DNA of 64,000 nt from Candidatus Bathyarchaeota archaeon (GTDB lineage Archaea > Thermoproteota > Bathyarchaeia > Bathyarchaeales > Bathycorpusculaceae), in assembly GCA_026014745.1 (NCBI GenBank), contig JAOZHS010000003.1, positions 40,137 to 104,136 on the forward strand, written 5' to 3'. How positions within the stretch are numbered: the first letter of the stretch is position 1; the number at the start of each line of letters is the position of its first letter. Under the pieces are notes generated by a model. That model saw only the letters and a program-made list of their open reading frames with translations, had not been told where the DNA came from and searched no databases. Of this stretch, positions 745 through 25,047 are shown piece by piece. Position numbers and translations under genes: made by a program.

Positions 745-1917
745 TTGGAAGGTGCCGTAGCCATAAAAAGTAAAATTAGCAGCATTGGATACGTTAACCG
801 AATCCAAGAAAACATCATGAACATTAAACGCAAAGAACTCGCCAACCTCTATGAGGAACTCAAGGCTGCGGACTGCGTCATCTGTGGAGGCTCAGGTCGT
901 TCATTGTATTCTCTTAATGCTGCCCTAAGCCAAATTGCTCTGGCGCAGGCGGGTGGGCGTAACAAAGTTGTCTTAACACCCGATGACCCTGGTTTTCCTG
1001 GTAAAGACATGTATGAAGCTGCCGCGAACCTCGAACGCCGCTACAAAAAAACCTTGCTTCTCATGAATAGTGGTAGCGGATATAGCGACGACCCCCTTGT
1101 CATGGCCCAGGACCTTGCTAAATATATTGAAGAAAAGAAAAGCAACAATTTCTCCATGGGGCTATTAACTTCCTCTTATGAATCGCCCCTTGCGGACATC
1201 ACTGCCAAATATGGTCGAGTTGTGCAGCTTAAAGGCCGCGGCAAACTCAAACCGAGCTTTGAATATAACGAAACTGGCATGATGGGTGACATCTTTGAGC
1301 TTGGTACGCTGGAGCTCCTAAACGGCATGATAGAAGGGATATTTCGCAACCTTGAAGTCGATGATATCTTTACGCTTTGTGAAGAAGAATTCAAAATATT
1401 GGGTGACATGATTGACTCCCACGTTAACTCCGATACTTACACCCAACTCGTCGACTTACTTGAGAAACGCACAGACCTCTTTTTAGGCGGTAAAGGAACC
1501 GCGAACGAAATCGCCAAAATGACTGGCGTAAGATTATTCCACATAAAAAGCTTCCTAGGTGACAACGTCTACATAACCCGCGGCGTAAACACACCTCACC
1601 CACGCGCAGGAGACCTAGAAATCCTGCTCTCTTACTCAGGCGAAACCCGCCCTGTCATCTTGTGGGCTGATGTCATCAAAAAATTCGCGGGCACCGTGTT
1701 TGCTATAACCGCAAACAAAAACTCCGCTCTTGCCAAAAAAGCTGACCTCAAAATCATCCTTCCCGAAGAGCCTAAACCCAACTTCCCCAGACGATTCTAC
1801 ACCCGCGCCGCCTACGTGCTAAGCCCAATCCCCGTCAAACTTGCGGAAAGACTCGCTGAACGCGGCTTAAACCTGCCCGAATACATCATCAGCTGGTACC
1901 ACTCAGTAACTCAATAA
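745..1917 (+). CDS. Tandem SIS-domain sugar-phosphate isomerase-like protein (two PHI/HxlB-like halves)
   Basis: N-half GGSGRS...NSGSG and C-half GGKGTA...GDLEILLSYSGET...AITANKNSALAKKAD both resemble PHI-type SIS motifs; start codon uncertain. Confidence 0.7.
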   Translation: MEGAVAIKSKISSIGYVNRIQENIMNIKRKELANLYEELKAADCVICGGSGRSLYSLNAALSQIALAQAGGRNKVVLTPDDPGFPGKDMYEAAANLERRYKKTLLLMNSGSGYSDDPLVMAQDLAKYIEEKKSNNFSMGLLTSSYESPLADITAKYGRVVQLKGRGKLKPSFEYNETGMMGDIFELGTLELLNGMIEGIFRNLEVDDIFTLCEEEFKILGDMIDSHVNSDTYTQLVDLLEKRTDLFLGGKGTANEIAKMTGVRLFHIKSFLGDNVYITRGVNTPHPRAGDLEILLSYSGETRPVILWADVIKKFAGTVFAITANKNSALAKKADLKIILPEEPKPNFPRRFYTRAAYVLSPIPVKLAERLAERGLNLPEYIISWYHSVTQ

Positions 1918-2053
1918 ACCCCAACCCCGTTTCCTGTTCAGTTTCTTTTCCATTTAACATTTTAAAAGTGAACAAATCTATACGCCCTAAAATAGCTAAA
2001 AAAGGCAAGTTTGGGGTTTTCAACTACATTAACTTGATCGATCCTTGTCCGAT

Positions 2054-2256
2054 AGACTTGACGCGCCCTTTTGCGGTCACGAACCTATTTGGATGCTAAT
2101 ATTCAAGCTATGCAGAAAACGATAGAGGGGGAGGGGCTAAGCGGGTATATTTGGATCCTATTAGAGGTTCTATGCAGAAACCTAAGAGGGGTAGGTCACT
2201 ATTGGTTGAAAACAAGCGCATTAGCATGTTGAAATCCAGTAGAATGCCCTTGATTA
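2054..2256 (-). repeat. Dispersed ~200-bp non-coding element, copy 1 (inverted relative to 46591-46796), containing two 62-bp-spaced subrepeats
   Basis: Manual alignment to reverse complement of 46591-46796 gives roughly 80-85% identity over ~170 bp; TATTTGGA at 2086/2148, TGCAGAAA at 2111/2173. Confidence 0.85.
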
Positions 2257-2279
2257 GGGTTACAAAAAAGGGGTGGGGT

Positions 2280-2702
2280 TTAGATGGTTGTGAATTGTGT
2301 GGGTATGGGTAGCCATTGTGTTGCGATGCCGACTAATGCGAGTACGAAGCCGATGACGAGCATGATGACGATGGCGACGACGAGGGCTATGATGCTGATG
2401 AGGAAGGCTTTGACCCAGCCGCAATCAAAGAAGTGCTTCACCAGTCCGAGCCAAATCACTAACATCACAAAGTAAGCTACCAGTGTCATGATGATTCCGC
2501 TGACCAAGCTTGCCACGAAGGCGTTGAAGAGGTACATGACGGCGGCGCCAAGCATCACTATCCAAAATGCGTCGGTGAATTTGGCGTTGTTTTTGCCTGC
2601 AAGCAGTCTGCCGCTAAGCCAGAGGGGGGGCACCACAAAGATTACGAGCACTATGACGGTTACTATGAGTCCTATTAGGGAGGCAACTATGTCAAATTCC
2701 AT
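2280..2702 (-). CDS. Hypothetical membrane protein (4 TM)
   Basis: 140-aa ORF almost entirely hydrophobic helices. Confidence 0.75.
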   Translation of the reverse strand: MEFDIVASLIGLIVTVIVLVIFVVPPLWLSGRLLAGKNNAKFTDAFWIVMLGAAVMYLFNAFVASLVSGIIMTLVAYFVMLVIWLGLVKHFFDCGWVKAFLISIIALVVAIVIMLVIGFVLALVGIATQWLPIPTQFTTI

Positions 2703-2796
2703 AGGGGTCTTCTCTTAAAATTGCTTAGTGCTCCTTTATCGAGGTTAGCGCTTTTAAGGTTTGCGTGCAAAGAAGCAACCAAGCCTACCGGAGGTT

Positions 2797-3909
2797 TCAG
2801 AGGCGGAATTTGCCCTTCTTAGAAACATCCGAGCCGAACTCCTTAGCCAACTGCTCAAGTAGCTCGCGCTGTGGACCCGTCAACTTATCAGGAACCGAAA
2901 TGCCTATGCGCACCAACAAATCACCGCGACCGTAACCGCGAAAACGCGGCATCCCCTTACCCCGCAGTGTCACAACTTCCCCGACCTGTGTTCCAGGACG
3001 GATTTTTATCGGAGTCGGACCCTCAAGAGTTGGGACAGTGATTTCAGCACCCAAAGCTGCCTGCGGATAACTAACGACAGCCACATGCCAGAGGTCATCA
3101 CCCTCCCGGATGAAATAGGGATTTTGCCGAACATGCACCTGCACATAGAGGTCGCCGGGTTCACCGCCGTTAGGAGCATAATCGCCCTCGCCGCGCAACC
3201 GAAGTTGCAACCCCTCATCCACGCCAGCAGGTATTTTAACGGTAATTTTTCGCCGCTTACGCATAACGCCAGACCCGCGACAGTTACTGCAAGGCGTCTC
3301 GATAATTTTGCCCTTCCCCTTACAAGTGGGGCACGCGCCAACCTGCATGTACGTGGCAAAACCTACCTTATGCATATTCTGCACACGACCCGCCCCGCCA
3401 CAACGACTACACGTCTTGGTTGTTGTGCCCGCCGCCGCGCCAGACCCGCCACAGACTTCACAGGGTTCAGTGCGGGGAATTTCAATCTCGCGTTCCGCGC
3501 CTCTAGCGGCTTCTTCAAGGCTGATTTCAAGGTCAAACCCTAAATCTTGACCCCGGTTACGTTCCTCGTAACCACCAAAACCGCCGCCACCAAAGATAGT
3601 GCGGAATAAGTCGCCAAAACCCATGTCACGGAAAATCGAGTCAAAATCTGCACCACGGAAAATATCCTCGCTAGTGTATTGTTGGTCAAAGCCAGTGTGA
3701 CCTAAAGTATCGTATTTTTGGCGTTTCTGGTCATCGCTAAGAACCGCATAAGCCTCGCTGATTTCTTTGAATTTTTCTTCCGCATCAGGGGCTTTGTTGC
3801 GGTCAGGGTGGTATTGGAGCGCCAGTTTCCTGTAGGAGTCTTTGATTTGGTCTTTAGACGCGTTTTTTGCAACGCCTAAAACCTCATAGTAGTCTCGTTT
3901 TTCCGCCAT
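2797..3909 (-). CDS. dnaJ: Chaperone DnaJ
   Basis: J-domain with HPD, G/F region, four CxxCxGxG zinc repeats, C-terminal domain. Confidence 0.98.
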
Positions 3910-3925
3910 GCAGCCTTACCGTTGA

Positions 3926-4003
3926 ATAAGTGTTTTTTGGACTTTGTAAGGATGCATCAGACCCAAATTTTAGGGTTTCCCTGCTTTGATAAGTGTTTTT
4001 TGG
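3926..4003 (-). repeat. Perfect 15-bp direct repeat ATAAGTGTTTTTTGG (3926-3940, 3989-4003) upstream of dnaJ
   Basis: Exact match seen in sequence, 63-bp spacing. Confidence 0.75.
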
Positions 4004-4078
4004 TGCAGCAGCTTTTCTTGACAGAAACGCTTAGAACAAAAGTAGATTAATTAGGCATTGCAAACGCATATGCCTAAG

Positions 4079-4894
4079 TTATTTTTTGTTGATTCTACGC
4101 ATCAAGATCAGCACGCCGACTACAGCCACTAAAGCAACTATCGCCACGACAATGAGGCTTGTTTGATCCTCAGATAAGTCGCCGAAGAGTTGGCCTAATT
4201 GGTTATCGGGAAAAATCGGGTTTTGAGTGGGGGTAGCTGTGGGATCAGGCCAGGAATAGTAGGGTGTTGCTGTAGGCGGATTCCAATTGTTGGGTGTGGG
4301 GGTTGCGCTGATGGGGTTGCCGTAGGTGACGGTTTGGGTGCCGCTCCAGCCGCTTACTTGAACCGTGTGGAAACTAGCTGAGCCACAATAGGAGCCGCTT
4401 GAATCGGTATAACCGAAGATGGCTTCAACTTGGAAGTCTATTTGTCCGCCTTGTTTGATACCCCAGTTTTGGACGTCAAACGAAACCACGGTGTCACCTG
4501 TAGTGGACGCTGCAACTGCGCTCATGCCATGGCTGCCGCCGTCGTCTCCGTACCAATCTTCAAAATGCCCTTTAGCGCGGACATTATAGTAGAGGCTAAG
4601 AGTGTGGTTTTCCTCATCGAGGCCCGGATTTATGTTCTGACGGTGTATAGTAACGTCAACGGTTATGCTCGTTACGCGATAACCGCCGTGGGGAGTCTTA
4701 ATTTCCTCGCCTGTGTAGGGGTCTTTTGAAGTAGTGTATGTTAGGGGTACATCGTAGGAGTGGTCGATGTATTGCACTGTAAAGGAGGGAACGGGGGGTG
4801 GGGAAACTGCAGATACAGGGATTGCAGTTAACACAAAAGAGACAGCTAAAACAACTGTGATTAGCAACGCGGGGATGGGGTTTCGGGTTGGCAT
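4079..4894 (-). CDS. Secreted/surface protein with signal peptide, Pro/Thr linker and C-terminal TM anchor
   Basis: Hydrophobic N-terminus ending VSA, PTP-rich linker, C-terminal TM plus basic tail. Confidence 0.85.
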   Translation of the reverse strand: MPTRNPIPALLITVVLAVSFVLTAIPVSAVSPPPVPSFTVQYIDHSYDVPLTYTTSKDPYTGEEIKTPHGGYRVTSITVDVTIHRQNINPGLDEENHTLSLYYNVRAKGHFEDWYGDDGGSHGMSAVAASTTGDTVVSFDVQNWGIKQGGQIDFQVEAIFGYTDSSGSYCGSASFHTVQVSGWSGTQTVTYGNPISATPTPNNWNPPTATPYYSWPDPTATPTQNPIFPDNQLGQLFGDLSEDQTSLIVVAIVALVAVVGVLILMRRINKK

Positions 4895-5088
4895 ACTTAA
4901 CCCTTAAGGGGGTTGCGCATATTAAGCTATCAGTAAAGAAACCTTGACTAAGCTTCGTCAAACTTTTTTGACTGCCTAAAAAACGATTTTAACCCCGTTT
5001 TGGCTTCTTTTTTATTCATATCGTTGTACCGGGGCGCTGTCCATAAGCATTATCTAGAGGGCTACACCGCTATAATCTAGGTGTTTTT

Positions 5089-5739
5089 GTGGCTTCAAGA
5101 TATCTCTCCTACACCGACCGCACAGGCGAAATCGCTTTTGCCGTCATCATGGTCATAATCATAAACGGCTACGTTGCCCTAACAGACCTCAATTCTGGAT
5201 TTACCTACATAATCGTGGTAAATTTAGGCGCCTGTGCAAGCTGGGGCTTAATTGATGGGTTAATCTATGCTTTTTCTGGTTCCATCGAACGTAATAACAT
5301 GCGGAATAAGTTGTTAAAGTTGAAAGCCTCCCTTCGGAATGGCTGCACTATAGAAGTGGTGAAAGCAACCTTAAATGACACCTACTTGTCAACCTTTGAT
5401 GACGCAGGCAAAGAAGCCATAGCCAAAGAAATCGTTGTCCACGTTTCAGGGGCTGATTTTGGAAAAGTAAAAGTTCTCACCAAAAACGAAATTATGGGCT
5501 GGCTAGCCATAATCGGCATCTACATGACCGTCGGCGTTTTGTTGGCGTTACCCTTTCTGATTTTGAGCGATAAGGTGTTAGCGTGGATACTTTCTAACAT
5601 TTGTGGCGTAACCTGGTTAACTTGGTATGGAATACAAATGGGAAAAACAGCGGGTAAAAATCGTTGGCTACTGGGCGCGTTTATGGCTATCGTCAGTATT
5701 CTTTTTATCTTGTTCTCTTATTTGGCGTGGGCAAAATAG
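5089..5739 (+). CDS. VIT1/CCC1-like membrane protein
   Basis: Two N-terminal TMs, soluble loop, three C-terminal TMs; 'GEIAFAVIM...WGLIDG' pattern. Confidence 0.55.
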   Translation: MASRYLSYTDRTGEIAFAVIMVIIINGYVALTDLNSGFTYIIVVNLGACASWGLIDGLIYAFSGSIERNNMRNKLLKLKASLRNGCTIEVVKATLNDTYLSTFDDAGKEAIAKEIVVHVSGADFGKVKVLTKNEIMGWLAIIGIYMTVGVLLALPFLILSDKVLAWILSNICGVTWLTWYGIQMGKTAGKNRWLLGAFMAIVSILFILFSYLAWAK

Positions 5740-5755
5740 GTAGGCTGGGGCGACT

Positions 5756-6298
5756 CTAAATTAGAGGGACGCCCATGATTCCTGAAGCTAAGCTTTCAAT
5801 GCCGATTAAGAGGAACACGATAGATACAAAGAACGCCCACGTGTAGACTCCGATTATCGGGAAGAAAATTATGATTATTGCAAAGACTGCGATCAAGATG
5901 CCCATCACTATGAGTAATGCTCGCAGACCACCTGATAGGTTGACGCCTGTTCCGCCGACTGCGATGCGCCCAATGGCGTAAATAAAGAGACCGATACCCA
6001 GAAGTATCACAATTGTGGCTGTCGCAAGACCTGGGAAAAACAGTATAATTAGTGCAACAATTATCGCCAAGATGCCAATAACCGCGTTGGTGCTTCTACT
6101 TGCCGTTGTAAGTGCTGAAGACGCTGCAGTTGCCAGCCGAAGGACACCGACTATCAGAAGAGCAATTGCGAACAAAACAACGATTGTAACTATGATGCCT
6201 TCGGGATAAATCAACGCTAAAATTCCCACTGCTAACGCAATTATCCCCAAAATGATTTCTAACGCGCGGTAGCCGCCCGAACTTTTTGAATCGCTCAT
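5756..6298 (-). CDS. HdeD/DUF308-family membrane protein
   Basis: Repeated 'GIIALAVGILALIYP' helical hairpin units, 6 TM. Confidence 0.8.
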   Translation of the reverse strand: MSDSKSSGGYRALEIILGIIALAVGILALIYPEGIIVTIVVLFAIALLIVGVLRLATAASSALTTASRSTNAVIGILAIIVALIILFFPGLATATIVILLGIGLFIYAIGRIAVGGTGVNLSGGLRALLIVMGILIAVFAIIIIFFPIIGVYTWAFFVSIVFLLIGIESLASGIMGVPLI

Positions 6299-6398
6299 AC
6301 AAAAACCTTCTAAATTGATTGAAACTATAAAACGCCTAAACGAATATGCTTCAATCGAACATAAAAACTATTGCTAGATAAGGGATGCTACAACTATT

Positions 6399-6836
6399 TT
6401 ACCCTACGATAGGCAAGATAGTTTTTCCCCGTATGCTACGTTTCCAGTGCCACAGTAATAACACAACCACAGCAATTCTTAGGTAAATAGACAGAGCCAT
6501 CATCCAACTGAACACGGAGACCGTTGTGAAACCTAAATTCAGGGTGAACAGCAGAGTGTTCTGGGGTACTAACCATAGGCTGTAATAGGTGTTTACGCCG
6601 ATGCTCAGAGACCCCGCTAAATATTTGAGGGCGCCATAGAAGACATCATTCATCAAAGACGCCACCAACCCTAAACCTAAGGTAAGTTCCCAGTTTCGGG
6701 GGTTAAGCAATGTGAACCCGACAAAAGGCAAAAAGTACATGATGACCAGCCAGAGGTGGTAGCCGTTGCTGGGGACAGGAGAAGCTATGTCGATGTAGTT
6801 GATGAAAACCACCCCGTAGACGACAGAGAAGAGCAC
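6399..6836 (-). CDS. Hypothetical membrane protein
   Basis: 145-aa hydrophobic ORF; frame is open further upstream, so the start is uncertain. Confidence 0.65.
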   Translation of the reverse strand: MLFSVVYGVVFINYIDIASPVPSNGYHLWLVIMYFLPFVGFTLLNPRNWELTLGLGLVASLMNDVFYGALKYLAGSLSIGVNTYYSLWLVPQNTLLFTLNLGFTTVSVFSWMMALSIYLRIAVVVLLLWHWKRSIRGKTILPIVG

Positions 6837-7014
6837 AAGATAGAGCAGCTTGCCTTCAAGAACTCCCCTAAGCAGGCTAAGTGGTGTTCGCGTGTTTGGG
6901 GCTGCGTTGGCACCCTGGAGTTCTTTTTTGGCGGTCAGGGTAGGTCACGAAAAGCGCAGCACGACCTGCTTTGTAATAAATCTTATTTTTTGAAACAGTA
7001 ATTTCGCCTGAAGT

Positions 7015-7040
7015 TTGTGACTGTATCGATACAGTCACAA
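7015..7040. promoter_or_regulatory. Perfect 26-bp palindrome TTGTGACTGTATCGATACAGTCACAA, putative operator
   Basis: Self-complementary over all 26 bp; 23/26 identical copy at 17317-17342. Confidence 0.7.
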
Positions 7041-7253
7041 GTTTTTACTTCGCGTTTGGAGATGAGAAAAACCGTCAAAGACCTCGATTAGGGTATCCCA
7101 ACGGTCAATTCAGTCTGCCTCAACACTTCGCCCAATTCGAGGCATCTTAACTTAGCCTTAATCTGCTATACCAAGACAAAAATTAACGGAGAAGGGATTT
7201 TTAACAGATGAAAAGGACTGCTTTACACGTATGAAAATGAAGAGAAAGGGCGT

Positions 7254-8213
7254 TTAAGAGAGCTCGAGGGTTCCTGCAATTCTTAGCTTGGCGCCCTCAA
7301 GATACATCAGCACCGCTTGGTCTTTAGGCTGATAAACCAGAGGCTTATCAAGACTAAATGTTACGGTTGGTTTTCGCCAGTCACCCGCGTCAGATACTGA
7401 ATCCACTTTGGCGGTTACAAACTGCGCCCAATGCCCAACATGCATAACCATACCCTCCTTTAGCGGAGTCTGCCAATACTTAACAAGCGTCGCTTGCGCC
7501 TGCAGTTTGTTGGAGGATTTCACCTCGGGGTCATTGGTTAAGACAGCGCCGCGGTCAAGGTCCTCAACATCCACGTTCTTCAAAGCAAACCCAACACGGT
7601 CGCCCAAGCCTGCAGATTCAAATTCGTCATCGTGCTTTTGGATGCTGCGAACCTGTGCAGTTTTTGTGCCCGGCAACACTTTGAGGTTGGCATGTTTTTG
7701 GATGCTTCCTTTGATGACTATGCCTAAGATGACTACGCCGACTCCCTTCACGTTAAAGGCATGGTCAACGGGGACGGTTCCGATTGTTTGGTCCTCGGCG
7801 GGTTTTATTTGGGCGGCTTCGGCTAAAAGTTTCTCCCGCAACATGTTGGCGTCGTCTTCTAAGAATTCGAAGGTTTCAAGGCTTGTGCCTTTTATGAGGG
7901 GCAAGATTTTTTCTTTAGGAATATAATTTCGCAAAATGAAGTAGCCGCTTTTGATGCCCGAACATTGCAGCATAACAAGTTGTTCGCCTAAACCTGCACT
8001 TAATTCGTCCACGACTACGAGGGCTTTGGTGGCGAGTGCGCAGGCGTAGAAGAGCGGCGCGAGGCGTTCGGGGTAACGGGTAGGTTCGATGAGGGTGACT
8101 GTGGCTTCGCCTTTTTTTAGGTCGTAGAGAGTGATGTCTGTGGATGTACCTTTCTTTGCTATGGTTCCGCTGTAACCTTGTGCGCCAAGGACGGCGACTG
8201 TGATGTTACCCAT
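7254..8213 (-). CDS. Archaeal EF-Tu/SelB-like protein with degenerate G-domain
   Basis: Domain II motif 'VPVDHAFNVKGVGVVILG', 'VRSIQKHD', 'GDRVGFALK'; P-loop, DxxG and NKxD not recognisable. Confidence 0.85.
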   Translation of the reverse strand: MGNITVAVLGAQGYSGTIAKKGTSTDITLYDLKKGEATVTLIEPTRYPERLAPLFYACALATKALVVVDELSAGLGEQLVMLQCSGIKSGYFILRNYIPKEKILPLIKGTSLETFEFLEDDANMLREKLLAEAAQIKPAEDQTIGTVPVDHAFNVKGVGVVILGIVIKGSIQKHANLKVLPGTKTAQVRSIQKHDDEFESAGLGDRVGFALKNVDVEDLDRGAVLTNDPEVKSSNKLQAQATLVKYWQTPLKEGMVMHVGHWAQFVTAKVDSVSDAGDWRKPTVTFSLDKPLVYQPKDQAVLMYLEGAKLRIAGTLELS

Positions 8214-8476
8214 AATGTTTCACCGATGGATATCGCCTACGTGCACCCGAAAGATAAGTGTTGTTGACGCAACAGATTTTTTGTTGATGCCGCCGCTAAA
8301 TTTTATGATGATACGTGTTAAAATGCATGGACGAAAGGTTCTTAAGGTATATAGTATTCTCATAAACGGCAATGTGGCGGAAGCGTTTCGCCAATTCAGG
8401 TAACGACCAATCTCCATGTGAGGCGGGTCAGACCAACTAAAAAGGTTAAAATACTCGGATGAAGAGGTGAAAAGGT

Positions 8477-8797
8477 ATGGAAAACATTTACGCAGCAATG
8501 CTCCTTCACAAGGCAGGTAAAGAAATAAACGAAGATTCCGTAACAAAAGTTCTCGAAGCAGCAGGACTCACTGTTGACGCAGTCCAGGTTAAAGCACTCG
8601 TAGCTTCACTTAGCGAAGTAAACATTGATGAAGCAATCAAAGCAGCCCCAACCATGATGGCAGCAGCTCCAGTTGCAGCCGCAGCAGCAGAATCCAAGCC
8701 AGCAGCAGCTCCAGCAGAAGACAAGAAGAAGAAAGCTGAAGACGAAAAAGCCAAGGAAGAAGCAGCACTAGAAGGATTAGGCGCCCTATTCGGGTAA
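8477..8797 (+). CDS. rpl12: 50S ribosomal stalk protein L12 (P1)
   Basis: '[16 protein letters not shown]', Ala-rich hinge, acidic tail ending GLGALFG. Confidence 0.97.
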
Positions 8798-8922
8798 ATT
8801 AGCCTCACATTTCTTATTTTTAACCAATTTTTCCCCAAAACATATTTTACCCCACATAGAAACGTAGCTAAAACGCTACATCACAATAAACTCTAAACTA
8901 AAAAAATAAAACAAAAAAGCGG

Positions 8923-10095
8923 TTACTGGATAGGCAAACCCTGCTCCTCAGGAACAGGATTTGACTGCACAACAACCGTAGCCTCAGCGGGCTTATTTCT
9001 ATTCATAAGCAACGCCACAGCCACGATAGGCGCCCAGCCTGTGAGAATCATCAGGGTTCCGGGGAAGCCGCCGATGCTACGTCCCATAAGCGGGTCAAGT
9101 ATGTTTAATATGTCTCGCAGGAAGGCTTCCCATATGCCAAACGCAACCGACATCGAGATAACCGATATCAGGGCGGTTTTTTTACCAAATTTGTTGAAGG
9201 TCTGAATTGCCAAAACGCCGGCGAAGAAGAAGTCTCCAAGTCCTAAGCCGCGGTTAAGAATCGCCTGTGTTGTAGGGTCAATAATTAACGGAACGTTAGG
9301 TAGATACACAAGCACAGGGAGCCCGATAGATGTAAACGTGTTTGCGGTTGTCATCATAACAGGTGTTACGATAACTAGGACTATGTCCATGATTGTTAAA
9401 AGTATGGCGAAGAGTCCCACGGTTTTCCAGCTAAACAACGAGCTCAAATAGAGTATGATTAGGATGGCGAATGTGAAGCCGAAAACATCCATCAAATACG
9501 GCGTCCAAATGTTAGCTGCACCGCCATAGAATACGTTGAAAAACGCGAAGAGAAGTATGAACAGAACTGGTGGCTGCACTGCAAGATACCACCGTGCCTT
9601 TGCAAGAGCTTTTCTTTGCTCATAGATTATTGAGCCAAAGCAGAAGGCGGCTAAACCAAAGAATGCCACCGCACGATAGATGCTCAAAGAGTCCGCGAGG
9701 GGCGCTGTGAGGCTTGCTGCACCCGCGATTACTGCTGCCGCGCCGAAACCAGCCGAGATAATTTGGGACCGCACCTTGGTTAGGCTGGAGAATATGTATG
9801 AAAAAGTGTAGAGCAACACAGTGTAGGAGCCCAAGAATAGCAGCATGAATACGTTTGTGAACATTTGTTCCGGAGCCACAAACGACGTGACCGCTATAAC
9901 GGAGATAACTATGGTCATGAATATGACAAGCATGATGATGTCGCGGTTTTTGAATTCTTTCTGCTCAACGGTAGCCATAAGTTTTCCTTCAACTCTCTTG
10001 TTGAGGAACATAGCAACCGTTACCACAAGGAAAAGCGCAATTGGCATAGCAATATCTAGAGATGGCATAAACTTCACAATAACCAAACGCGACAT
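8923..10095 (-). CDS. Presenilin/signal-peptide-peptidase-like GxGD intramembrane aspartyl protease
   Basis: Multi-TM; first Asp in 'TIMDIVLV', second in 'GLGLGDFF'. Confidence 0.85.
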   Translation of the reverse strand: MSRLVIVKFMPSLDIAMPIALFLVVTVAMFLNKRVEGKLMATVEQKEFKNRDIIMLVIFMTIVISVIAVTSFVAPEQMFTNVFMLLFLGSYTVLLYTFSYIFSSLTKVRSQIISAGFGAAAVIAGAASLTAPLADSLSIYRAVAFFGLAAFCFGSIIYEQRKALAKARWYLAVQPPVLFILLFAFFNVFYGGAANIWTPYLMDVFGFTFAILIILYLSSLFSWKTVGLFAILLTIMDIVLVIVTPVMMTTANTFTSIGLPVLVYLPNVPLIIDPTTQAILNRGLGLGDFFFAGVLAIQTFNKFGKKTALISVISMSVAFGIWEAFLRDILNILDPLMGRSIGGFPGTLMILTGWAPIVAVALLMNRNKPAEATVVVQSNPVPEEQGLPIQ

Positions 10096-10138
10096 TTATG
10101 CCTTTAGCCAAAACCCTCCATAAAGGCACCCGCACAAC

Positions 10139-10993
10139 TCAGTAACTTAGCTGCAAATTAAAAACAGCAAGCGTCGCCAAAAGCGCCTCTTCAGTGCGAA
10201 CCGTCACAGTGCCTTGATTGGGAACCGTGTTAACAACAAAATCCACCAGCTCCGCAAGCTTTAGGCCCTCGTCTTCAACAATTTCATGTAGCCCCCGAGA
10301 TGGAGCACCAAACCCGACCAACACCCGTTCGCTGCCCATCAATTTCGCGTTGATTTTTCCTGCAACCTCATTGAAGTTGTCGCCGATGCGTGCGGTGGCA
10401 ATCCGCAAATCAAAGTCCTTGTCCTGTACTATTTGCCCAAAGGGTCGTTTCTCGACGCGGACTTTATATGCCCAATATTGAGGTACATCGTCGCGGTTAA
10501 CGACTTGAACTTCGACATGTTCGCCAAGGTTTACCACCTGTGTAGTTAAGCGGTCACCGATGGAGAATTCTCTTTGCCTCAGCAGAGCAGGTTGTTGAAC
10601 GCCGATATCTACCCTTAAGCCTTCTTTTGTTTCAGAGAAAACCTGTCCTTCGCGGTATTCACCGAGTTGGAGGTGTTTGGTTTTGCCGCTGGATGGATGG
10701 TTAGGTGTACGCAGTGGGGGGAGTATGCCTGCGTATTCGAGGCTGGGTTGCAACGCAAACATCCGCTTCCGCAAATACTGAGGCGTCTCCAAATAATTCA
10801 ACAACAATGCCATTAGTTCGAGGTCGCGGCGTTGATCTACTCTGGCGTCGTCTGGGTAAACTATGATTTCGTCTATGCGGAAAATTGCTGCTGCTCGTCC
10901 GATTAACCCGATTTTGCCTGTTTTTTCTCGAAGATGCGGCGTGTCCGATATGACGGAGGCGGGAATGGCTATTGAGACTTTCTTTTTACTCAT
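10139..10993 (-). CDS. SPOUT-class RNA methyltransferase (DUF171/MTH1 family)
   Basis: 'IGRAAAIFRIDEI', 'YLETPQYLRK', 'GILPPLRTPNH', 'NQGTVTVRTEEA'. Confidence 0.92.
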   Translation of the reverse strand: MSKKKVSIAIPASVISDTPHLREKTGKIGLIGRAAAIFRIDEIIVYPDDARVDQRRDLELMALLLNYLETPQYLRKRMFALQPSLEYAGILPPLRTPNHPSSGKTKHLQLGEYREGQVFSETKEGLRVDIGVQQPALLRQREFSIGDRLTTQVVNLGEHVEVQVVNRDDVPQYWAYKVRVEKRPFGQIVQDKDFDLRIATARIGDNFNEVAGKINAKLMGSERVLVGFGAPSRGLHEIVEDEGLKLAELVDFVVNTVPNQGTVTVRTEEALLATLAVFNLQLSY

Positions 10994-11074
10994 ATCATAG
11001 TTTCCTGTATGTGTGTCAGTTTAGTTACTACGTTGTGCTTAAAAGGTGGAGAAGAGATATAAAAATACGGGTTA

Positions 11075-12193
11075 ATGGAGGATTACTTTGTGTCCACGCC
11101 CATTTTAGATGACCCCGAAAAAATAAAATCCGCTGATAAAAGTGACATGCTAAAGTACTGTATCCACGCTGCACAGCATTACCGAAAAGCAGCAGATATA
11201 GCAGAGTCAATAACAACCAATTATCCTAAACCAAGCAACATCATTGTGGCAGGCATGGGCGGCTCAGCCATAGGCGGCGACCTACTAAAGGACTGGTGCA
11301 AAAACAAGCTATCTGTTCCCATCGAGGTAAACCGCGAATATCATCTCCCCGCCTACGCAGATAACAAAACACTGGTACTAATCACTAGTTACTCAGGCGA
11401 CACCGAAGAAACCCTCAGTAACTACCTTGATGCCTTGCAACGTAAATGCATGATTTTCTGCGTTACAAGCGGTGGGGTCTTACTCAAAGACGCCCAGAAA
11501 CGTGGCATCCCCTCCATTCAGGTTCCCGGCGTCATGCCCCCCCGAGCAGCCTTGCCCTACATGTTTGTTCCCCTGATAATTTATCTCCAAAAGGCAGGAT
11601 TAATCGCAGGTGCCCTTGAGGAATTAGACGAAGCCATCGAGGTTATGGAACATATCAGCATCGAAAACGGTCCTGAAAAGCTAACTCGAGACAATTTTGC
11701 CAAAACAACCGCATACTATATCGGTGAAACCGCCCCCGTTGTCTATGGCTTCGGCGTTTTTCGCAGCGTTGCCCAACGCTTTAAGCAGCAATTCAACGAA
11801 AACAGCAAATCTGCCGCAAAATGGGAGTTTTTCCCCGAATTAAACCATAACGAAATCGTAGGCTGGGAAAGCCGCGACGAACAATGCAAGTATTTCTCGG
11901 TAATTCTCATTCGCGACATCGACAATGAACCCTTTGAAATCGCCGACAGAATCGATGTAACCCAACAGATCTTAGAGCGAAAGGGGCTCATAATGTTTGA
12001 GCTAAAAGTGCAGGGTAAAAGCCCGCTGGCAAAGATGCTGTCCACGATTGTTATCGGCGACTTCATCAGCGTCTACTTAGCTGTGCTGCGCAAAGCAGAC
12101 CCCACACCTGTAGCAACCATAAACTACCTCAAAGAAAGCCTCAAACAAAACGGGTTCAGAGAAAAAATAATCGAGGAATTAGAAAAGCTGTAG
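11075..12193 (+). CDS. Bifunctional phosphoglucose/phosphomannose isomerase
   Basis: 'GMGGSAIGGD', 'SYSGDTEET', 'PRAA', 'QFNENSK', 'ELNHNEI'. Confidence 0.93.
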   Translation: MEDYFVSTPILDDPEKIKSADKSDMLKYCIHAAQHYRKAADIAESITTNYPKPSNIIVAGMGGSAIGGDLLKDWCKNKLSVPIEVNREYHLPAYADNKTLVLITSYSGDTEETLSNYLDALQRKCMIFCVTSGGVLLKDAQKRGIPSIQVPGVMPPRAALPYMFVPLIIYLQKAGLIAGALEELDEAIEVMEHISIENGPEKLTRDNFAKTTAYYIGETAPVVYGFGVFRSVAQRFKQQFNENSKSAAKWEFFPELNHNEIVGWESRDEQCKYFSVILIRDIDNEPFEIADRIDVTQQILERKGLIMFELKVQGKSPLAKMLSTIVIGDFISVYLAVLRKADPTPVATINYLKESLKQNGFREKIIEELEKL

Positions 12194-12197
12194 ACGG

Positions 12198-12728
12198 TCA
12201 CCATTTTTCCTTATGCACAATCTCTTCTAGGTTTTTTCTTTGATCAGCACCCACGGCTGCACGGACACGTCTACTTGCTTCGCTATCTTCTGCAGGATAC
12301 CCCAACGGCGTCAAAGCCACCACCTTTACATCGCCAGGAACGCCAAGAGCCGCTTTAACTGACGCTTCATCGAAGGCACCTATCCAGCAAGTTCCTAACC
12401 CAAGGTTAGAGGCGGCCAAAACCAACTGCTGCAACGCAATACCAACATCAACGAGGTAGTAGTCCATGCCGTTGCGGAAACCTGACTCTTTAGGGTCAGC
12501 ACACGCCACAATCACAACGGGTGCCTGCTTTATCCAGCTAAATTTGCCACAGATTTTTTCAATTCGGGCTTTGTCTTTAACAACAATGTATCTGGCGCAT
12601 TGCCTGTTTGCCCATGAAGGCGCCCAACGTGCCGCCTCTAAAATCTGTGTTAACTTCTCTTCCTCTACAGCCTTGTTAGCATAGTCTCGAATGCTTTTTC
12701 GCGAAGTAATTACATCCGCAAAGTCCAT
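12198..12728 (-). CDS. Nitroreductase family protein
   Basis: 'RKSIRDY', 'ARWAPSWANRQ', 'LGLGTCWIG', 'LGYP'. Confidence 0.93.
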   Translation of the reverse strand: MDFADVITSRKSIRDYANKAVEEEKLTQILEAARWAPSWANRQCARYIVVKDKARIEKICGKFSWIKQAPVVIVACADPKESGFRNGMDYYLVDVGIALQQLVLAASNLGLGTCWIGAFDEASVKAALGVPGDVKVVALTPLGYPAEDSEASRRVRAAVGADQRKNLEEIVHKEKW

Positions 12729-12827
12729 AATTTCGTCACTAAAAACAAACAGAGAAACAAAGAATATACAAATATTGGCGAATAAATCGACTGTCGAAAT
12801 TTGAGGCTAATTTACAAAAAGAAAGAA

Positions 12828-13118
12828 TTATTTTTGGGTTTGTTTTGCCCATTCTTCTTTTGCCATTTTCGCTAGGGCTTCGAGGTTAGCTTGTTGAGAT
12901 AAATCGTAGACTACATTGTTTAATTCGTTTTTGACCAGCAACGCGATTTCGCCGGGGCGTAGTGGTTCAGGCCTTGTAGATTGGTAAACGCGCAGTGCAC
13001 GCATAACGAAGTGCACCATTAACTCGTTTAGGTGATTTTGCAGGTCGGTTAACTCGTTTTTGTCTTCTTTCATTTTCTGCGAATAAGTACTTGAATCCCA
13101 TTTTCCTTCGTTTGACAT
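12828..13118 (-). CDS. Hypothetical helical protein
   Basis: 96-aa ORF filling the gap co-directionally after pyrG. Confidence 0.7.
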   Translation of the reverse strand: MSNEGKWDSSTYSQKMKEDKNELTDLQNHLNELMVHFVMRALRVYQSTRPEPLRPGEIALLVKNELNNVVYDLSQQANLEALAKMAKEEWAKQTQK

Positions 13119-13180
13119 AATGATTCAATCCGTTAAGCACTCATGTCAACGGAACATTATAGCTTTTACTAAAAAAGAGA

Positions 13181-14830
13181 CTAAGAAAAGGAAAGTTTGG
13201 GCTTGCCCAGTTTCTTATTTACGCAAGCTTGGATAAAACCAAAATATTCAGGCGAGGGGCGTCCAGGTCGACTTCTGAATTCACCATGGAATTGGCTGGC
13301 AAAGTAGAAGTAATTCTTGAGGTACTCGAGGGTTTCCATGCGTCTGCCGTCACTGCTTTTGCCTGTGAAGCGCAAGCCATTGTTTTTGAGAACTTCGATA
13401 TAGTCAAGGTTGACTTCGAAGCGGTGGCGGTGGCGTTCATAGATTTCTTCACATCCAAACATATTGTAGGCTACGCTGCCCTTCTCAAGAATAACTTTGT
13501 GGGCACCCAACCGCATTGTTGCGCCTTTAGCTTCGATACCGCGTTGCTCAGGCATCAAGTCAATAACGGGATAAGGAGTGTCAGGATTGATTTCAGTGCT
13601 GTTAGCATCTTTTAGACCGCAGACGTTACGTGCAAATTCAATGACAGCCAACTGGAAGCCATAACATATGCCTAAGAAGGGGATGTCGTGTTCACGTGCA
13701 TATTTTGCGGCGGCGATTTTGCCTTCAGTGCCGCGTGGACCAAAGCCGTAGGGAACAAAGACGCCGTCATAACCAGCGAGTTCCTCAATACATTGAGGTT
13801 CACGCTCGTATTTTTCAGCTTCAAGATAGGATATGCAGACTTTGGCTTTATTTGCCGCGCCGCCGTGCCGCAGGGCTTCAGTCATGCTAACATAGCTATC
13901 AGTTAACCCTGCGTATTTGCCAACTAACGCAATTTTAACTTCATGTTCTGGATGAACCATGGCGTCAACGAATGTTTGCCATTGGCTGAAGTCTTTGGTT
14001 TCATATTTAAGACCAAGACGTTGACAGACAAAGTCGCCCATGCCCTGCTTATCCAAGATGAGTGGCACTTGATAGACAGTTTCGGCGTTGTATGAGCAGA
14101 AGACTGCTGCTTCGGGGATGGTACCGAACAAGGCGATTTTGCGGAGTGCCTCAGAATCAATCATGACGGGGCTGCGGGCAACGATGGTGTCAGGTTGAAT
14201 ACCGATGCGACGCAGTTCGTTTACGCTGTGCTGGAGCGGTTTAGTTTTCATTTCGCCGGTAACATCCAAGACGGGTACCAACGCGACATGCACATAGAGG
14301 GTGTTTTCGTAACCTTCCTCGACACGCATCTGACGAATAGCCTCCAAGAAAGGCAAGCCTTCAATGTCGCCGACCGTGCCGCCAACCTCGGTTAAAACGA
14401 TGTCGGCGTTTACGGCTTTACCCGCGTTTTTGATGCGATTTTTAATTTCGTTAGTGACGTGAGGGACGATTTGGACGCATCTGCCCAAAAAGTCGCCGTG
14501 ACGTTCTTTTTCGATTACGCTGCGGTAGATGGTTCCGGTGGTTAAATTGTTGCTTTGTTTGAGGCTGAGATCCAAGAAGCGTTCATACCAGCCCAAGTCT
14601 AGGTCTGTTTCGCCTCCGTCATCGGTGACGAAGACTTCGCCGTGCATGTATGGATTCATTGTTCCCGCGTCAATGTTAACGTAGGGGTCGATTTTTACGA
14701 CAGTGGGTTTTAAGCCTCTTGCTTGGAGCATTTTGCCGATTGAAGAAGTTAAGATACCTTTACCAACTGAGCTTAACACGCCGCCTGTTACGAAAATGTA
14801 CTTAACCATTTTTTTCCCCGTTATAACCAC
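13181..14830 (-). CDS. pyrG: CTP synthase (likely start at ATG 14809)
   Basis: '[16 protein letters not shown]', '[17 protein letters not shown]', glutaminase 'GICYG', 'QFHGEF'. Confidence 0.98.
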
Positions 14831-14920
14831 TACCTTTCAAGCAGTCTTAATATAACTCTTTTGTGTGCAACGCTGAAAAACCGTGCAATTAAGCATCATT
14901 AAAACAGAAAAAATATACAA

Positions 14921-15259
14921 TTATTGGGGTGCAGACATGGAATATTTGCGGTTGCGTCTAAGTCCCCAAATCAAAAGCCAAATGCCAATCACCACCAAAA
15001 CCAGCGGCCAGAAATACGCCCAGAACAAACCCAAGGTTCCAGTGAGTGCTGCTAAACCCAAGAAAACTATGATTAAGCCCGCGATGAGTAACCCTATGCC
15101 GCCACCCTGATGGTGATAATGATAATCGCCTTGGTAGTGACGATGCACGTGTCGATAGTTAACTCTGCAATCTACGTACAGGGGAGAACCGCAGTTTGAA
15201 CAATTCGTTGCTACTTCAGGGTTTAATGTTCCGCATTTTGTGCAATAAACCAAAGCCAT
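14921..15259 (-). CDS. Zinc-ribbon + DUF5668/LiaF-like membrane protein
   Basis: CTKCG...CSNCG, His-rich linker, two TMs with 'FWPLVLVVIG'. Confidence 0.8.
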   Translation of the reverse strand: MALVYCTKCGTLNPEVATNCSNCGSPLYVDCRVNYRHVHRHYQGDYHYHHQGGGIGLLIAGLIIVFLGLAALTGTLGLFWAYFWPLVLVVIGIWLLIWGLRRNRKYSMSAPQ

Positions 15260-15381
15260 ATCCTCGATACGCTTGTAGATGTCTGTGGACTCATAAAATT
15301 TTTGGTCGCTTTCAGAAAAGCTACAGAAATCTGCTGCATAAAATATTAATTAAAGGCAGCATATACTAAACGAGACATAAA

Positions 15382-15615
15382 ATGCCACAAGCCTTCGTAT
15401 TAATCAACGTAGAATCTGGAGCCGAAGAAGAAGTAGTCAACCAACTAAAACAGGTCGAAGGCATCCAAGAAGCCTACTTCTCCTATGGCGTTTACGACAT
15501 AATCACCAAGATAAAAGCAGACTCCATGGAGAAACTCAAAGACACAGTAACCCGCAAAATCCGAACCCTAAACAGAGTTCGTTCAACGCTAACACTCATC
15601 ATGATGGAAGAATAA
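15382..15615 (+). CDS. Stand-alone Lrp/AsnC ligand-binding (RAM) domain, copy 1
   Basis: 'AFVLINVESG...GVYDIITKI...VRSTLT'; no HTH. Confidence 0.92.
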   Translation: MPQAFVLINVESGAEEEVVNQLKQVEGIQEAYFSYGVYDIITKIKADSMEKLKDTVTRKIRTLNRVRSTLTLIMMEE

Positions 15616-15694
15616 GCCTCAACTTATCCTTGTGGAGCCTTTTTGCTATAACCCTTAAATGCCTAGGCACTGAAGGTTAAGCAAGGCAAACCCC

Positions 15695-16750
15695 ATGAAA
15701 CAGCTAAAAGCACCCACACGCCAGCAAGCAGTCATCATCCTTTTAATCGTGGGGTTAATTGCATTCGTAGCCTACTTCTACTTCTACATCAACCCCGCCC
15801 AACTAATTGAGATTCTTGCCCAAACCAACCTCGTTTACTTCGCCGGCGCGTTTATCGCCTACAGCCTCTACGTTCTTTTCTCGTCGCTGGTCTGGCAAAA
15901 CCTCCTAACAAACCTCTCCATAGACGTATCCAAACGCAAAGCCCTCCTCTACACATGGGTCGGCCTCTTCTTTGAAGCCACAGTCCCTCAACTGGGATGG
16001 TCCGCGGAGATATCCAAAACCTATCTCCTCTCCAAAGACACAAAAGTAGACGCAGAACGAATCGGTGCCTCCGTGGTTGGACAAAAAATCTTCGTCATGA
16101 CCCTGAGCGTTGTTGCGATGGCAGTCGGGTTAACTTCAGTGCTGGTTAGTTATTCATTGCCACCACTTGTCACTTTCCTGATTGGTCTGGTCTTGGGGCT
16201 TTCAGCTTTGACTTTGTCGATGGTCTACTACATCAGCGTTAAGCCTTCCGCCACACAAACCCTTCTAAAATGGGCCATACGGATTGTGTTGATTTTCCGT
16301 AAGAGTTGGAACCCGCAAAGCTTTAAAGAAAAAGCGGAAGACTGGCTGAGTAAGTTTCACCGAGACATCGAGCAACTAAAAGCTAACCCACGCCAACTCA
16401 TCTGCCCCATCATCACCTCAATTATTGCTTTTGTTTGTGAAGTTTCCGTGTTGGCCTTTGCCTTTTTAGCGTTAGGTCAAGCGGTACCTGTTAACGTAAT
16501 CTTGATCGTTTTCACCTTAACCGGAACACTACAAACTGTCGGGGTAACGTTTTTTGGTTTTCCAGAAATAATAATGGCCACGTCGTTTGAGGCGTTAGGT
16601 ATCGTGCCGGCGTCTTTAGGACTTGCGGTAACTTTGTTGGCGCGCGTAGTGAATTTGTGGTTTAGACTGATTGTTTCTTATGCGGCGTTGCAATATGCAG
16701 GGTTAGGCATACTTAAAAGAAAGCCAATCAAACAAGCAGGCAAGCAGTGA
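15695..16750 (+). CDS. UPF0104 / lysylphosphatidylglycerol-synthase TM-like flippase family protein
   Basis: Multi-TM, 'W..LL..L', 'GASVVGQK', 'TLLARVVNLWF'. Confidence 0.82.
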   Translation: MKQLKAPTRQQAVIILLIVGLIAFVAYFYFYINPAQLIEILAQTNLVYFAGAFIAYSLYVLFSSLVWQNLLTNLSIDVSKRKALLYTWVGLFFEATVPQLGWSAEISKTYLLSKDTKVDAERIGASVVGQKIFVMTLSVVAMAVGLTSVLVSYSLPPLVTFLIGLVLGLSALTLSMVYYISVKPSATQTLLKWAIRIVLIFRKSWNPQSFKEKAEDWLSKFHRDIEQLKANPRQLICPIITSIIAFVCEVSVLAFAFLALGQAVPVNVILIVFTLTGTLQTVGVTFFGFPEIIMATSFEALGIVPASLGLAVTLLARVVNLWFRLIVSYAALQYAGLGILKRKPIKQAGKQ

Positions 16751-16864
16751 ATTTTTCTCTTGAATATAGGGAGCATTTTTTACTTTCCTGTTCATTTTGC
16801 GGGTTTTTTCTGTTAGGAAAGATTTTAATGCAGTCTCCCTAATTCAATTACATAGAGGATCTTT

Positions 16865-17104
16865 ATGCCCACAGCGTTTGTGTTGATAAACACTGAGATA
16901 GGCTCAGAATCAGACGTTTTAAATGAACTCAAAAAAGTTGAGGGTGTCGAGGAATCGTCAGCTGTTTATGGAGTATATGACATCGTAGCACGAGTTAAAG
17001 CCGACACCATGGATAGACTAAAAGAAATCGTAACTTGGCGTGTAAGGCGCCTTGACAAAGTCCGCTCAACACTCACCATGATTGTTGTAGAGGACAAAGT
17101 CTAA
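16865..17104 (+). CDS. Stand-alone Lrp/AsnC RAM domain, copy 2
   Basis: 'AFVLINTEIG...GVYDIVARV...VRSTLT'. Confidence 0.92.
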   Translation: MPTAFVLINTEIGSESDVLNELKKVEGVEESSAVYGVYDIVARVKADTMDRLKEIVTWRVRRLDKVRSTLTMIVVEDKV

Positions 17105-17192
17105 ACTTTCTTTTTTCTTTCAAAAAACGGCTAATATTGATTTTTAGTTCATAAGAATTTTTAACAAAACCCACAGAGTAACTGTGATAACT

Positions 17193-17297
17193 ATGGAAAA
17201 ACAGTTTAGATGCCCTTGGTGTGGCAACAACTTTCAGAATGGGAAAGAACTTGACGCACACGCACGAGGCCACTATATTAGGCAAAGTTCAGCTTAG
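17193..17297 (+). CDS. 34-aa single C2H2 zinc-finger micro-protein (MEKQFRCPWCGNNFQNGKELDAHARGHYIRQSSA); absent from ORF track
   Basis: Hand translation; exact F-x-C-x2-C-x3-F-x5-L-x2-H-x3-H spacing; GTGA upstream of ATG. Confidence 0.8.
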   Translation: MEKQFRCPWCGNNFQNGKELDAHARGHYIRQSSA

Positions 17298-17316
17298 CCT
17301 CTTAACGCTAAACAAG

Positions 17317-17342
17317 TTGTGACTGTGCCGATACAGTCACAT
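17317..17342. promoter_or_regulatory. Second copy of 26-bp palindrome (TTGTGACTGTGCCGATACAGTCACAT)
   Basis: 23/26 identical to 7015-7040; abuts TATA-like TTTTAAA at ~17346. Confidence 0.7.
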
Positions 17343-17614
17343 AATTTTAAATTTTTTGCAAAGGAGTAGTGAGTCCTGTGCGTCATAGAGGTAGAGCCAA
17401 ATGAGTCCAAACTCAAAAAAAATCTGCATGCGACATAATACCCAACCCGCAGGCAGAGGTGACTCTACCCGTAGAAGCACCGAACTTTTTGTTGGTTGGC
17501 AGAGGAGGCTTGGAAAAATGCATGTTTTTTCGTGTATCCCTTAAAGCAGGAAGAGCACTCCAACCTCTAAAGCCAACCCAATCCGACCAAATGAAAGGAG
17601 TTGAAAGATAAATA

Positions 17615-17896
17615 ATGCCAACAGCCTACGTTCTTTTGAACACTGAGATTGGATCAGAAGACGAAGTTTTGAGCGCAATAGAAAAAGTTGAAGGCGTAAC
17701 CGAAGTCCATTGCCTTTGGGGCGTCTATGATATTATCGCGACCGTTGAAGCAGAAAGCATCGAAAAATTAACCCACATAATCACCAAAAACATCGGAAAC
17801 ATCAGCCATATAAACTCAAAACTAACTATGCTAATCCACGACGAAACATCCACTCTGCGAGACGGCTTATTGGAAGAAACACCGCTTATCCAATAA
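17615..17896 (+). CDS. Stand-alone Lrp/AsnC RAM domain, copy 3
   Basis: 'AYVLLNTEIG...GVYDIIATV'. Confidence 0.9.
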   Translation: MPTAYVLLNTEIGSEDEVLSAIEKVEGVTEVHCLWGVYDIIATVEAESIEKLTHIITKNIGNISHINSKLTMLIHDETSTLRDGLLEETPLIQ

Positions 17897-17960
17897 GGCC
17901 CACAAAATTTTTTTAGTCCCCCCGTACCCTTCTTTCTTAATATCTTAGGAGCAGCCACCC

Positions 17961-19304: not shown

Positions 19305-19353
19305 GCTGCCGTTAACAGACAAGATTTGTGGTTTTTTGACTCACTATAAGTGA

Positions 19354-19716: not shown

Positions 19717-19722
19717 TTCCAA

Positions 19723-23208: not shown

Positions 23209-23224
23209 CTGGCTTTCTTTCTCT

Positions 23225-25032: not shown

Positions 25033-25047
25033 GAGGGCAAATGTGAC

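Follow-up and report, generated by a model that had tools for sequence, protein, structure and literature searches.

The 64-kb stretch of DNA analysed here (hereafter the window) belongs to contig C2 of a 2.7-Mb genome in three contigs from the Bathy-6 Bathyarchaeia, a subgroup that takes in Candidatus Bathycorpusculum as well as peat and soil metagenome-assembled genomes (MAGs). Near one end of the window, a gene for a SIS-domain protein is followed by a non-coding element of about 200 bp (copy A), and then by the genes for a 140-aa membrane protein (P140, a conserved protein with 706 homologues) and DnaJ on the opposite strand. About 44 kb further on, the genes for a CCA-adding enzyme and UppP/BacA and a small ORF, for which a called counterpart is present in a close relative, lead up to a second copy of the element in inverted orientation (copy B), beyond which lies a short stretch specific to this genome. 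Both copies are located between convergent gene ends, as the initial annotation of this DNA had stated. The positions of these features, and of the modules into which each copy could be divided, are shown in Table 1.

Table 1. Copies A and B, their modules and the genes and segments around them (window positions unless a contig or locus is named)
Feature	Position	Strand	Remarks
SIS-domain gene	745..1917	+	outer flank of copy A
Copy A, whole	2054..2256	+	a-b-tail type
5' extension, copy A (GATAGACTTGAC...)	2051..2067	+	among the 76 loci common only to copy B (1 of 76 by regular expression, plus copy A by eye)
Leader module, 3'-end remnant (CTTTTGCGGTCACGAA)	2068..2083	+	seen when the upstream flanks of 21 copies were aligned
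Unit a, copy A (CCTATTTGGATGCTAATATTCAAGCTATGCAGAAAACGATAGAGGGGGAGGGGC...)	2084..2145	+	
Unit b, copy A (TATATTTGGATCCTATTAGAGGTTCTATGCAGAAACCTAAGAGGGGTAGGTC)	2146..2197	+	
Tail module, copy A (ACTATTGG..CATTAGCATGTTGAAATCCAGTAGAA), with 12-nt extension TGCCCTTGATTA	2198..2256	+	
Segment of 44.3 kb	2257..46570	.	ends flipped relative to the genus-wide order (neighbourhoods of 75 relatives)
P140 gene	2280..2702	-	flank of copy A
P140 and DnaJ genes	2280..3909	-	inner flank of copy A
CCA-adding enzyme gene	44008..45420	+	inner flank of copy B; ancestral neighbour of the SIS gene
UppP/BacA gene	45406..46200	-	inner flank of copy B; ancestral neighbour of the SIS gene
Small ORF	46345..46593	+	flank of copy B
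Degenerate G-box of an older TATA+G-box cassette (TTCAAGAGAGGGCGGGGTAG)	46571..46590	-	intact cassette at the same place in the close relative R1
Copy B, whole	46591..46796	-	a-b-tail type
Tail module, copy B, with extension AGCCCCTGATTA	46591..46649	-	
Unit b, copy B	46650..46699	-	
Unit a, copy B	46700..46760	-	
5' extension, copy B (ATAGACACAGACTTGAC...), with extra CCTATTTGGCG half-motif	46761..46804	-	
Genome-specific stretch, 34% GC	46797..47420	-	outer flank of copy B; 170-aa ORF inside
Genome-specific ORF	46866..47378	-	flank of copy B
TATA+G-box cassette, examples	window 46571-46590; C2:28185-28215; L253:7610-7660; L256:1825-1880, 17110-17160; L257:8390-8440		

The initial annotation had described the two copies as an inverted pair ~44 kb apart with 80-85% identity, and formal alignment agreed with this description. 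Comparison of copy A with copy B by blastn gave 85% identity over query positions 16-187 (~172 bp), and MAFFT showed a near-continuous match from CCTATTTGG to CTTGATTA (~2084 to 2256 in copy A); the collapse of identity against which the annotation had warned did not occur. Positions 2126-2256 and 46591-46721 form a gapless inverted repeat that is 82% complementary. The claim of two sub-repeat units in each copy was also borne out: the motif TATTTGG-N14-18-TGCAGAA-N5-9-AGAGGGG occurs four times in the window, twice in copy A (starts at 2086 and 2148) and twice in copy B (46758(-) and 46699(-)), against an expectation of 0 based on 100 shuffles. The unit spacing, given previously as ~60-62 bp, proved to be 62 bp for copy A and 59 bp for copy B. 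Units a and b have diverged from each other (76% identity in a 33-nt core), and Tandem Repeats Finder made no call on them in either copy, the divergence being too high. Terminal inverted repeats, said to be absent, were indeed found in neither copy. The sole inverted repeat of copy A is an internal palindrome centred on GGATCC, and copy B adds only short inverted matches of the CTATTTGG type, which are internal or upstream and none of them terminal. Similarly, the absence of a convincing ORF was upheld. A small protein was considered both in the frame that begins at the ATG of the unit (a basic peptide, MQKPKRGRSLL...) and in a frame of the leader module (a hydrophobic one, MLVP...), and was rejected for both, as indels of 1-2 nt from copy to copy disrupt these frames.

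The picture of just two copies, however, was too narrow. Both copies are real, but they are only two of the 76 loci of a repeat family that blastn detected in this genome, essentially all of which are intergenic. On crude ORF maps, in which ORFs cover 88% of the genome, 61 of the 76 loci overlap no ORF of at least 70 aa; the other 15 mostly overlap short ORFs of 72-122 aa, and one extends 47 bp into a 300-aa ORF. The loci are split between the plus and minus strands (40 and 36, respectively), and their orientation to the neighbouring genes is unbiased (convergent 20, divergent 20, tandem 20 and 16).

The order of modules in the family is fixed, that is, leader, unit a, unit b and tail, and any of them may be absent or doubled. 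The leader, which is present at ~15-20 loci, consists of a T/G-rich run, then AAATTGCTTATAGG, and then ...GGGCCATGCTAGTGCCCGCTTGCATTG...CTTTCTTTTGCTTTCAACGAA. The consensus is CTATTTGGATGCTAATATCCAAGCTATGCAGAAACGATAGAGGGGGAGGGGC for unit a, TATTTGGATCCTATTAGTGGTTCTATGCAGAAACCTAAGAGGGGTAGGTC for unit b and ACTATTGG-N14-16-CATTAGCATGTTGAAAACCAGTAGAA for the tail. When forms with and without the leader are pooled, the 76 loci include 16 of the a-b-tail type (the type of copies A and B), 19 with unit b and tail, 15 with unit b alone and 9 with the tail alone, the rest being a-b, a-tail or b-b with or without a tail. The pairwise identity of full copies is 85% on average and ranges from 71% to 95%. 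Within a unit, CTAW recurs every 11-12 bp (CTATTTGGATC, CTATTAGTGGTT, CTATGCAGAAAC, CTAAGAGG). Read from the consensus, the ~60-bp unit is a short array of helically phased sub-motifs. The suggestion in the initial annotation that the spacing of the units follows the helical repeat survives as an observation only.

The ends of the unit (CCTATTT... and ...GGGGTAGGTC) are common to a shorter cassette, CCTATTTATAC-TTTAAATAA-GGGAGGGGGTAGGTC-CTCTAACTGA, which is scattered in intergenic DNA and resembles the BRE/TATA boxes of the host, as in tRNA promoters, followed by a G-box (TATA+G-box cassette). Throughout the genome, this cassette is found either upstream of a co-directional gene, at a distance of 80-200 bp, or past the stop of a convergent gene, at 24-46 bp (examples in Table 1). 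A covarying 'variable hairpin' 3' of the tail, suspected in ~20 copies, proved on inspection to be a diverged form of the same cassette.

The distribution of the family among Bathy-6 relatives was patchy: more than 100 candidate matches were found in several species of the genus, few in some and none detectable in others. The module grammar was identical in six other species. Matches in other species were 75-90% identical to the copy A query, compared with 75-79% at the DNA level for a flanking housekeeping gene; such strong conservation of sequence blocks across species could reflect a function for the host. The occupied sites differ between species and are not orthologous. Six of 39 element-centred loci of other species were syntenic here, corresponding to five distinct sites, all of which are empty in this genome, and one intergenic region that is empty here carries the element in three other species. 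No empty site that might show a target-site duplication could be aligned: between species, intergenic DNA has diverged too far, and in the close relative R1 the DNA is rearranged or replaced at both the copy A and the copy B sites. A gene flanking another copy, used as a probe for an empty site, codes for a fast-evolving beta-helix protein, of which no close orthologue was found. With regard to a possible enrichment of synteny breaks at the elements, we make no claim, the five syntenic sites standing against a baseline of only ~53% at a repeat-free junction. Copies A and B belong to a non-coding repeat family of Bathy-6 Bathyarchaeia that is lineage-restricted, intergenic and modular ('mosaic'). 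To our knowledge, small mosaic intergenic repeats have been much studied in bacteria and hardly described in archaea. In the literature searched, which included the report of the first complete Bathy-6 genome, we found no description of such repeats in Bathyarchaeia.

Relative to the gene order of most relatives, this genome carries a 44.3-kb inversion, and copies A and B, which are oppositely oriented, occupy its two breakpoints. We collected the neighbourhoods of SIS-gene orthologues from 80 relatives, 75 of which had downstream DNA at this locus. In 64 of these 75 relatives, the SIS gene is followed within 1.5 kb downstream by orthologues of the CCA-adding enzyme and/or UppP/BacA, which are without exception inverted with respect to this genome; the genus-wide order is the SIS gene, then UppP, then the CCA-adding enzyme. 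Thus, compared with the order usual in the genus, the ends of the segment between the two copies are flipped. P140 and DnaJ were downstream neighbours of the SIS gene in none of the 75 relatives. The upstream side of the SIS gene served as a control, and its neighbourhood was retained in 39 of 73 relatives. With 76 loci, ~3% of the approximately 2,700 intergenic regions are occupied, and the probability that both breakpoints would carry a copy at random is roughly estimated to be of the order of 10^-3.

A single clean inversion was rejected because the reciprocal junction that it predicts, P140 beside the gene at 46866, was not found: P140 is next to another segment in R1 and next to a third gene in distant relatives. 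In the latter, grpE-dnaK-dnaJ-P140 are contiguous and P140 is followed by a different gene, whose orthologue in this genome adjoins a repeat copy at C3:25627. It should be noted that the hsp70 operon is split in the window, with grpE-dnaK at 25033-27362 (+) and dnaJ at 2797-3909 (-), ~21 kb apart and on opposite strands.

Further information came from R1, a 169-kb contig of a JGI metagenome that is 88-93% identical to this genome. R1 also has the flipped CCA-UppP arrangement and is collinear with this genome across window positions 40122-53220; therefore, the inversion predates the split of the two and is no artefact of assembly. Neither copy A nor copy B is present in R1, and no repeat copy was found in the about 46 kb of it that were examined. 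Homology to R1 stops at window position 2030, ~20 bp before copy A, and resumes exactly at 2257, that is, at the 3' end of copy A. The R1 DNA that is homologous from 2257 onwards lies elsewhere, in a 2.8-kb block of a 270-aa gene, DnaJ and P140; in R1 this block is attached to the beginning of the segment whose other end carries the SIS gene. At the other breakpoint, homology stops at 46575, ~20 bp outside the tail end of copy B, and resumes at 47420; the interval comprises 845 bp here (copy B and the 34%-GC sequence with its 170-aa ORF) versus 1,463 unrelated bp in R1. At both sites R1 carries an intact TATA+G-box cassette, where this genome has an a-b-tail element (copy A site) or an element together with a degenerate G-box (copy B site). 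On the basis of the comparisons with R1 and with distant relatives, the repeat-bearing junctions are places of repeated rearrangement and replacement. The stretch adjoining copy B, which has 34% GC compared with 46.6% for the genome, looks like a small strain-specific insertion; its 170-aa ORF is membrane-anchored and had no significant match in Pfam, with one sub-threshold match to CP2 (E 0.0018).

We consider it likely that these observations reflect a mosaic repeat family, comparable to BOX, BIME and STAR, that is located at rearrangement hot spots. In this reading, the repeat marks hot spots of recombination and probably feeds them as well. The family would have no enzyme of its own and would spread and be reshuffled by recombination or gene conversion between shared module ends, although a protein acting in trans might be the spreading agent instead. 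Dispersed copies would in turn provide substrates or hot spots for ectopic recombination, by which segments of the chromosome would be inverted and relocated. Within this reading, the balance is roughly even as to whether copies A and B themselves caused the 44-kb inversion. The order of events may have been the other way round, with the copies settling after the inversion in junctions that were already fragile, because R1 has the inversion without either copy and because copies A and B, at 85% identity, resemble each other no more closely than full copies of the family do on average.

Several other explanations were weighed against this one. The repeat might be a cis-acting cassette of the host, that is, a candidate array of binding sites, or a promoter or terminator cassette, for an archaeal DNA-binding or transcription factor, whose units are kept for organising chromatin or for setting the boundaries of transcription units. 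The CTAW sub-motifs, phased at 11-12 bp on one helix face, would suit such a role, as would the resemblance of AAATTGCTTATAGG in the leader to the tRNA promoter boxes of this genome, the placement of the related TATA+G-box cassette relative to genes and the higher conservation of the blocks across species than that of the flanking gene. Yet the 76 loci show no preference in orientation or distance to neighbouring genes, the element is missing from orthologous intergenic regions of this genome or of close relatives, and many congeners have few or no detectable matches, so that we regard this explanation as rather doubtful. A more speculative possibility, which we consider unlikely, is that the units and the TATA+G-box cassettes are recognition sites of an as yet unrecognised archaeal recombination system that carries out 'cassette exchange' without a classical transposase. 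Such a machine, either site-specific or homology-guided, would transfer copies of modules from one intergenic region to another and cause inversions and block relocations in Bathy-6 Bathyarchaeia, and the phased CTAW motifs might be its protein-binding array.

Among the three candidates of the initial annotation (protein-binding iterons, an ncRNA and a non-autonomous mobile element), the last comes closest: high copy number, intergenic placement and site variability all stood, but no terminal inverted repeats were found and, in the two transposase families searched, no partner transposase. Its specific form would be a classical MITE, descended from an insertion sequence by deletion and mobilised in trans by a transposase that is encoded elsewhere or was formerly present, and the patchy occurrence among species and the polymorphic sites are what might be expected of it. 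Nevertheless, we regard a classical MITE as improbable. Not only do the copies lack terminal inverted repeats that could match an insertion sequence, with no arm pairing of the ends in alignments of 68-83 copies, but their modules also vary in number while keeping a fixed order. No multi-copy insertion-sequence-like repeat of more than 300 bp was found in the genome, the largest repeats of which (2.5 kb) are paralogous beta-propeller surface proteins. The search for transposases in this genome covered two families: PF01797 (Y1) had no match, and PF07282 (TnpB Zn-ribbon) had one weak match below the Pfam cut-off and none at or above it; a TnpB omega-RNA or an IS200/605 end was rejected on the same results. 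Y1 transposase genes occur in 28 of 81 congeners, none of which is repeat-rich (they are absent from G005, G008, G054, G056, G067, G072, G075 and G076). The absence of Y1 transposases from repeat-rich genomes also bears on REP/BIME elements proper, in which palindromic units are recognised by a REP-associated tyrosine transposase (RAYT). This explanation, prompted by the GTAG tetranucleotide within the conserved GGGGTAGGTC box and consistent with the mosaic architecture, was rejected and is hardly credible, as no stable palindrome was present in the 68 copies examined and the units are direct rather than alternating in orientation. Viral carriers were dismissed too, the unit core having no exact match in IMG/VR.

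The ncRNA candidate fared poorly. In the form considered, a multi-copy small RNA gene, the unit would be the promoter and the tail the transcript, with copies and fragments scattered over the genome. Tail-only copies start near a conserved ATGCAGAAAC/CCTAAG, ~25 nt after the TATA-like CTATTTGG, T-rich runs lie 3' of the tail in other species, and a small tail hairpin shows some compensatory changes by eye. On the other hand, RNAalifold found no consensus structure in 83 aligned b-tail copies from seven species (-0.7 kcal/mol). When 68 copies were compared with dinucleotide shuffles, mean folding z-scores for unit, tail and whole element lay between +0.2 and -0.6 on both strands (unit, +0.22 on the plus and -0.59 on the minus strand; tail, -0.52 on each), and the value of -2.4 for copy A was not general across the family. 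As minimum free energies were no better than those of shuffles on either strand, a folded RNA and a single-stranded DNA hairpin were both rejected. Rfam had no match to the repeat at gathering thresholds, and even at E values up to 5 only a chance-level match to the snoRNA sR41 appeared, outside the repeat (E 2.2, 16.9 bits, cut-off 54). Considering in addition that the unit or the tail is missing from many copies, we think a small RNA gene very improbable. Origins of replication in archaea have a few inverted ORB or mini-ORB boxes flanking an AT-rich unwinding element beside a cdc6/orc1 initiator gene. The phased sub-repeats and the G-string had suggested origin, partition or ORB-like iterons in the initial annotation; however, with 76 dispersed loci in random orientation, sites that are not conserved between species, and SIS, DnaJ, UppP and CCA-enzyme genes as the neighbours of copies A and B, the probability of this explanation is close to nil.

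The mosaic family located at rearrangement hot spots, which remains our preferred reading, may be compared with known systems. The BOX elements of Streptococcus pneumoniae (Croucher et al., 2011; PMC3049150) are similar in that they are intergenic, have modules in a fixed order (boxA-boxB(n)-boxC) with a varying number of the internal module, occur in ~100 copies per roughly 2-Mb genome, lack a transposase of their own and vary in size between genomes. The census of the 76 loci revealed the same combination of fixed order and variable internal-module number. Unlike BOX, which is bacterial and has a predicted stable stem-loop formed by boxA and boxC, the Bathy-6 repeat has an archaeal host and no stable fold, its terminal modules showing neither consensus structure nor excess stability, and there is no sequence similarity between the two. 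The BIME/REP elements of Proteobacteria (Nunvar et al., 2010; PMC2817692) are likewise high-copy mosaic intergenic arrays, known as protein-binding sites and recombination hot spots; however, they consist of GC-rich palindromes in alternating orientation and are accompanied by a RAYT gene, whereas the units of the Bathy-6 repeat are direct and non-palindromic. The STAR elements of staphylococci (Purves et al., 2012; PMC3532100) resemble it in being interspersed intergenic direct repeats whose loci vary between species and expand or contract, with no known mobilising enzyme, but they have a short GC-rich motif with variable spacers, in contrast with conserved modules of 50-60 bp and a defined tail. 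Prokaryotic MITEs, as defined in PMC3049150 (surveys in PMC11602168 and PMC3184786), share with the Bathy-6 repeat a non-autonomous nature, intergenic location, size below ~250 bp, many copies and patchy occurrence, but they are defined by terminal inverted repeats. Because the defining tests of MITE, REP/BIME and BOX failed, the family is classed only in general terms, as a small mosaic interspersed intergenic repeat.

The A/B pair is explained by the family, which also marks both ends of the 44-kb inversion and lies where close genomes differ. Therefore, it can serve in practice as a marker of genome rearrangement, and is a candidate driver of it, in an uncultured lineage that is abundant in soil and sediment. 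It also matters for the assembly and binning of Bathy-6 genomes, and to those who could take such repeats for origins, RNAs or regulatory sites.

Several additional observations were made on the window and the genome. The TATA+G-box cassette was found at every junction where this genome and R1 differ. Two more pairs of repeat copies face inward ~3.9 kb apart (C1:312297-316317 and C1:748925-752904; loci L085 and L086). The genes inside such pairs are those for MFS and CorA transporters and for cobalamin salvage, with no recombinase; a composite transposon was rejected, since only these ordinary genes are enclosed. C1:1-2001 and C3:1276134-1278155 are 96% identical over 2 kb in inverted orientation, representing either an overlap of contig ends or a large repeat at which the assembly stopped. 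The window also contains a second dispersed repeat family, at 23225-23281 and 60555-60611. Another copy of this family, at C2:28230-28290, lies exactly at a breakpoint relative to R1 and is bracketed by the 10-bp inverted repeats CAGTAGATCA and TGATCTACTG, because of which the second family may be a true MITE. Finally, ~51-nt direct repeats in sets of six and five copies with 135-282-bp spacing occur within a coding region at 27867-28772, which probably codes for a repeat-domain surface protein.
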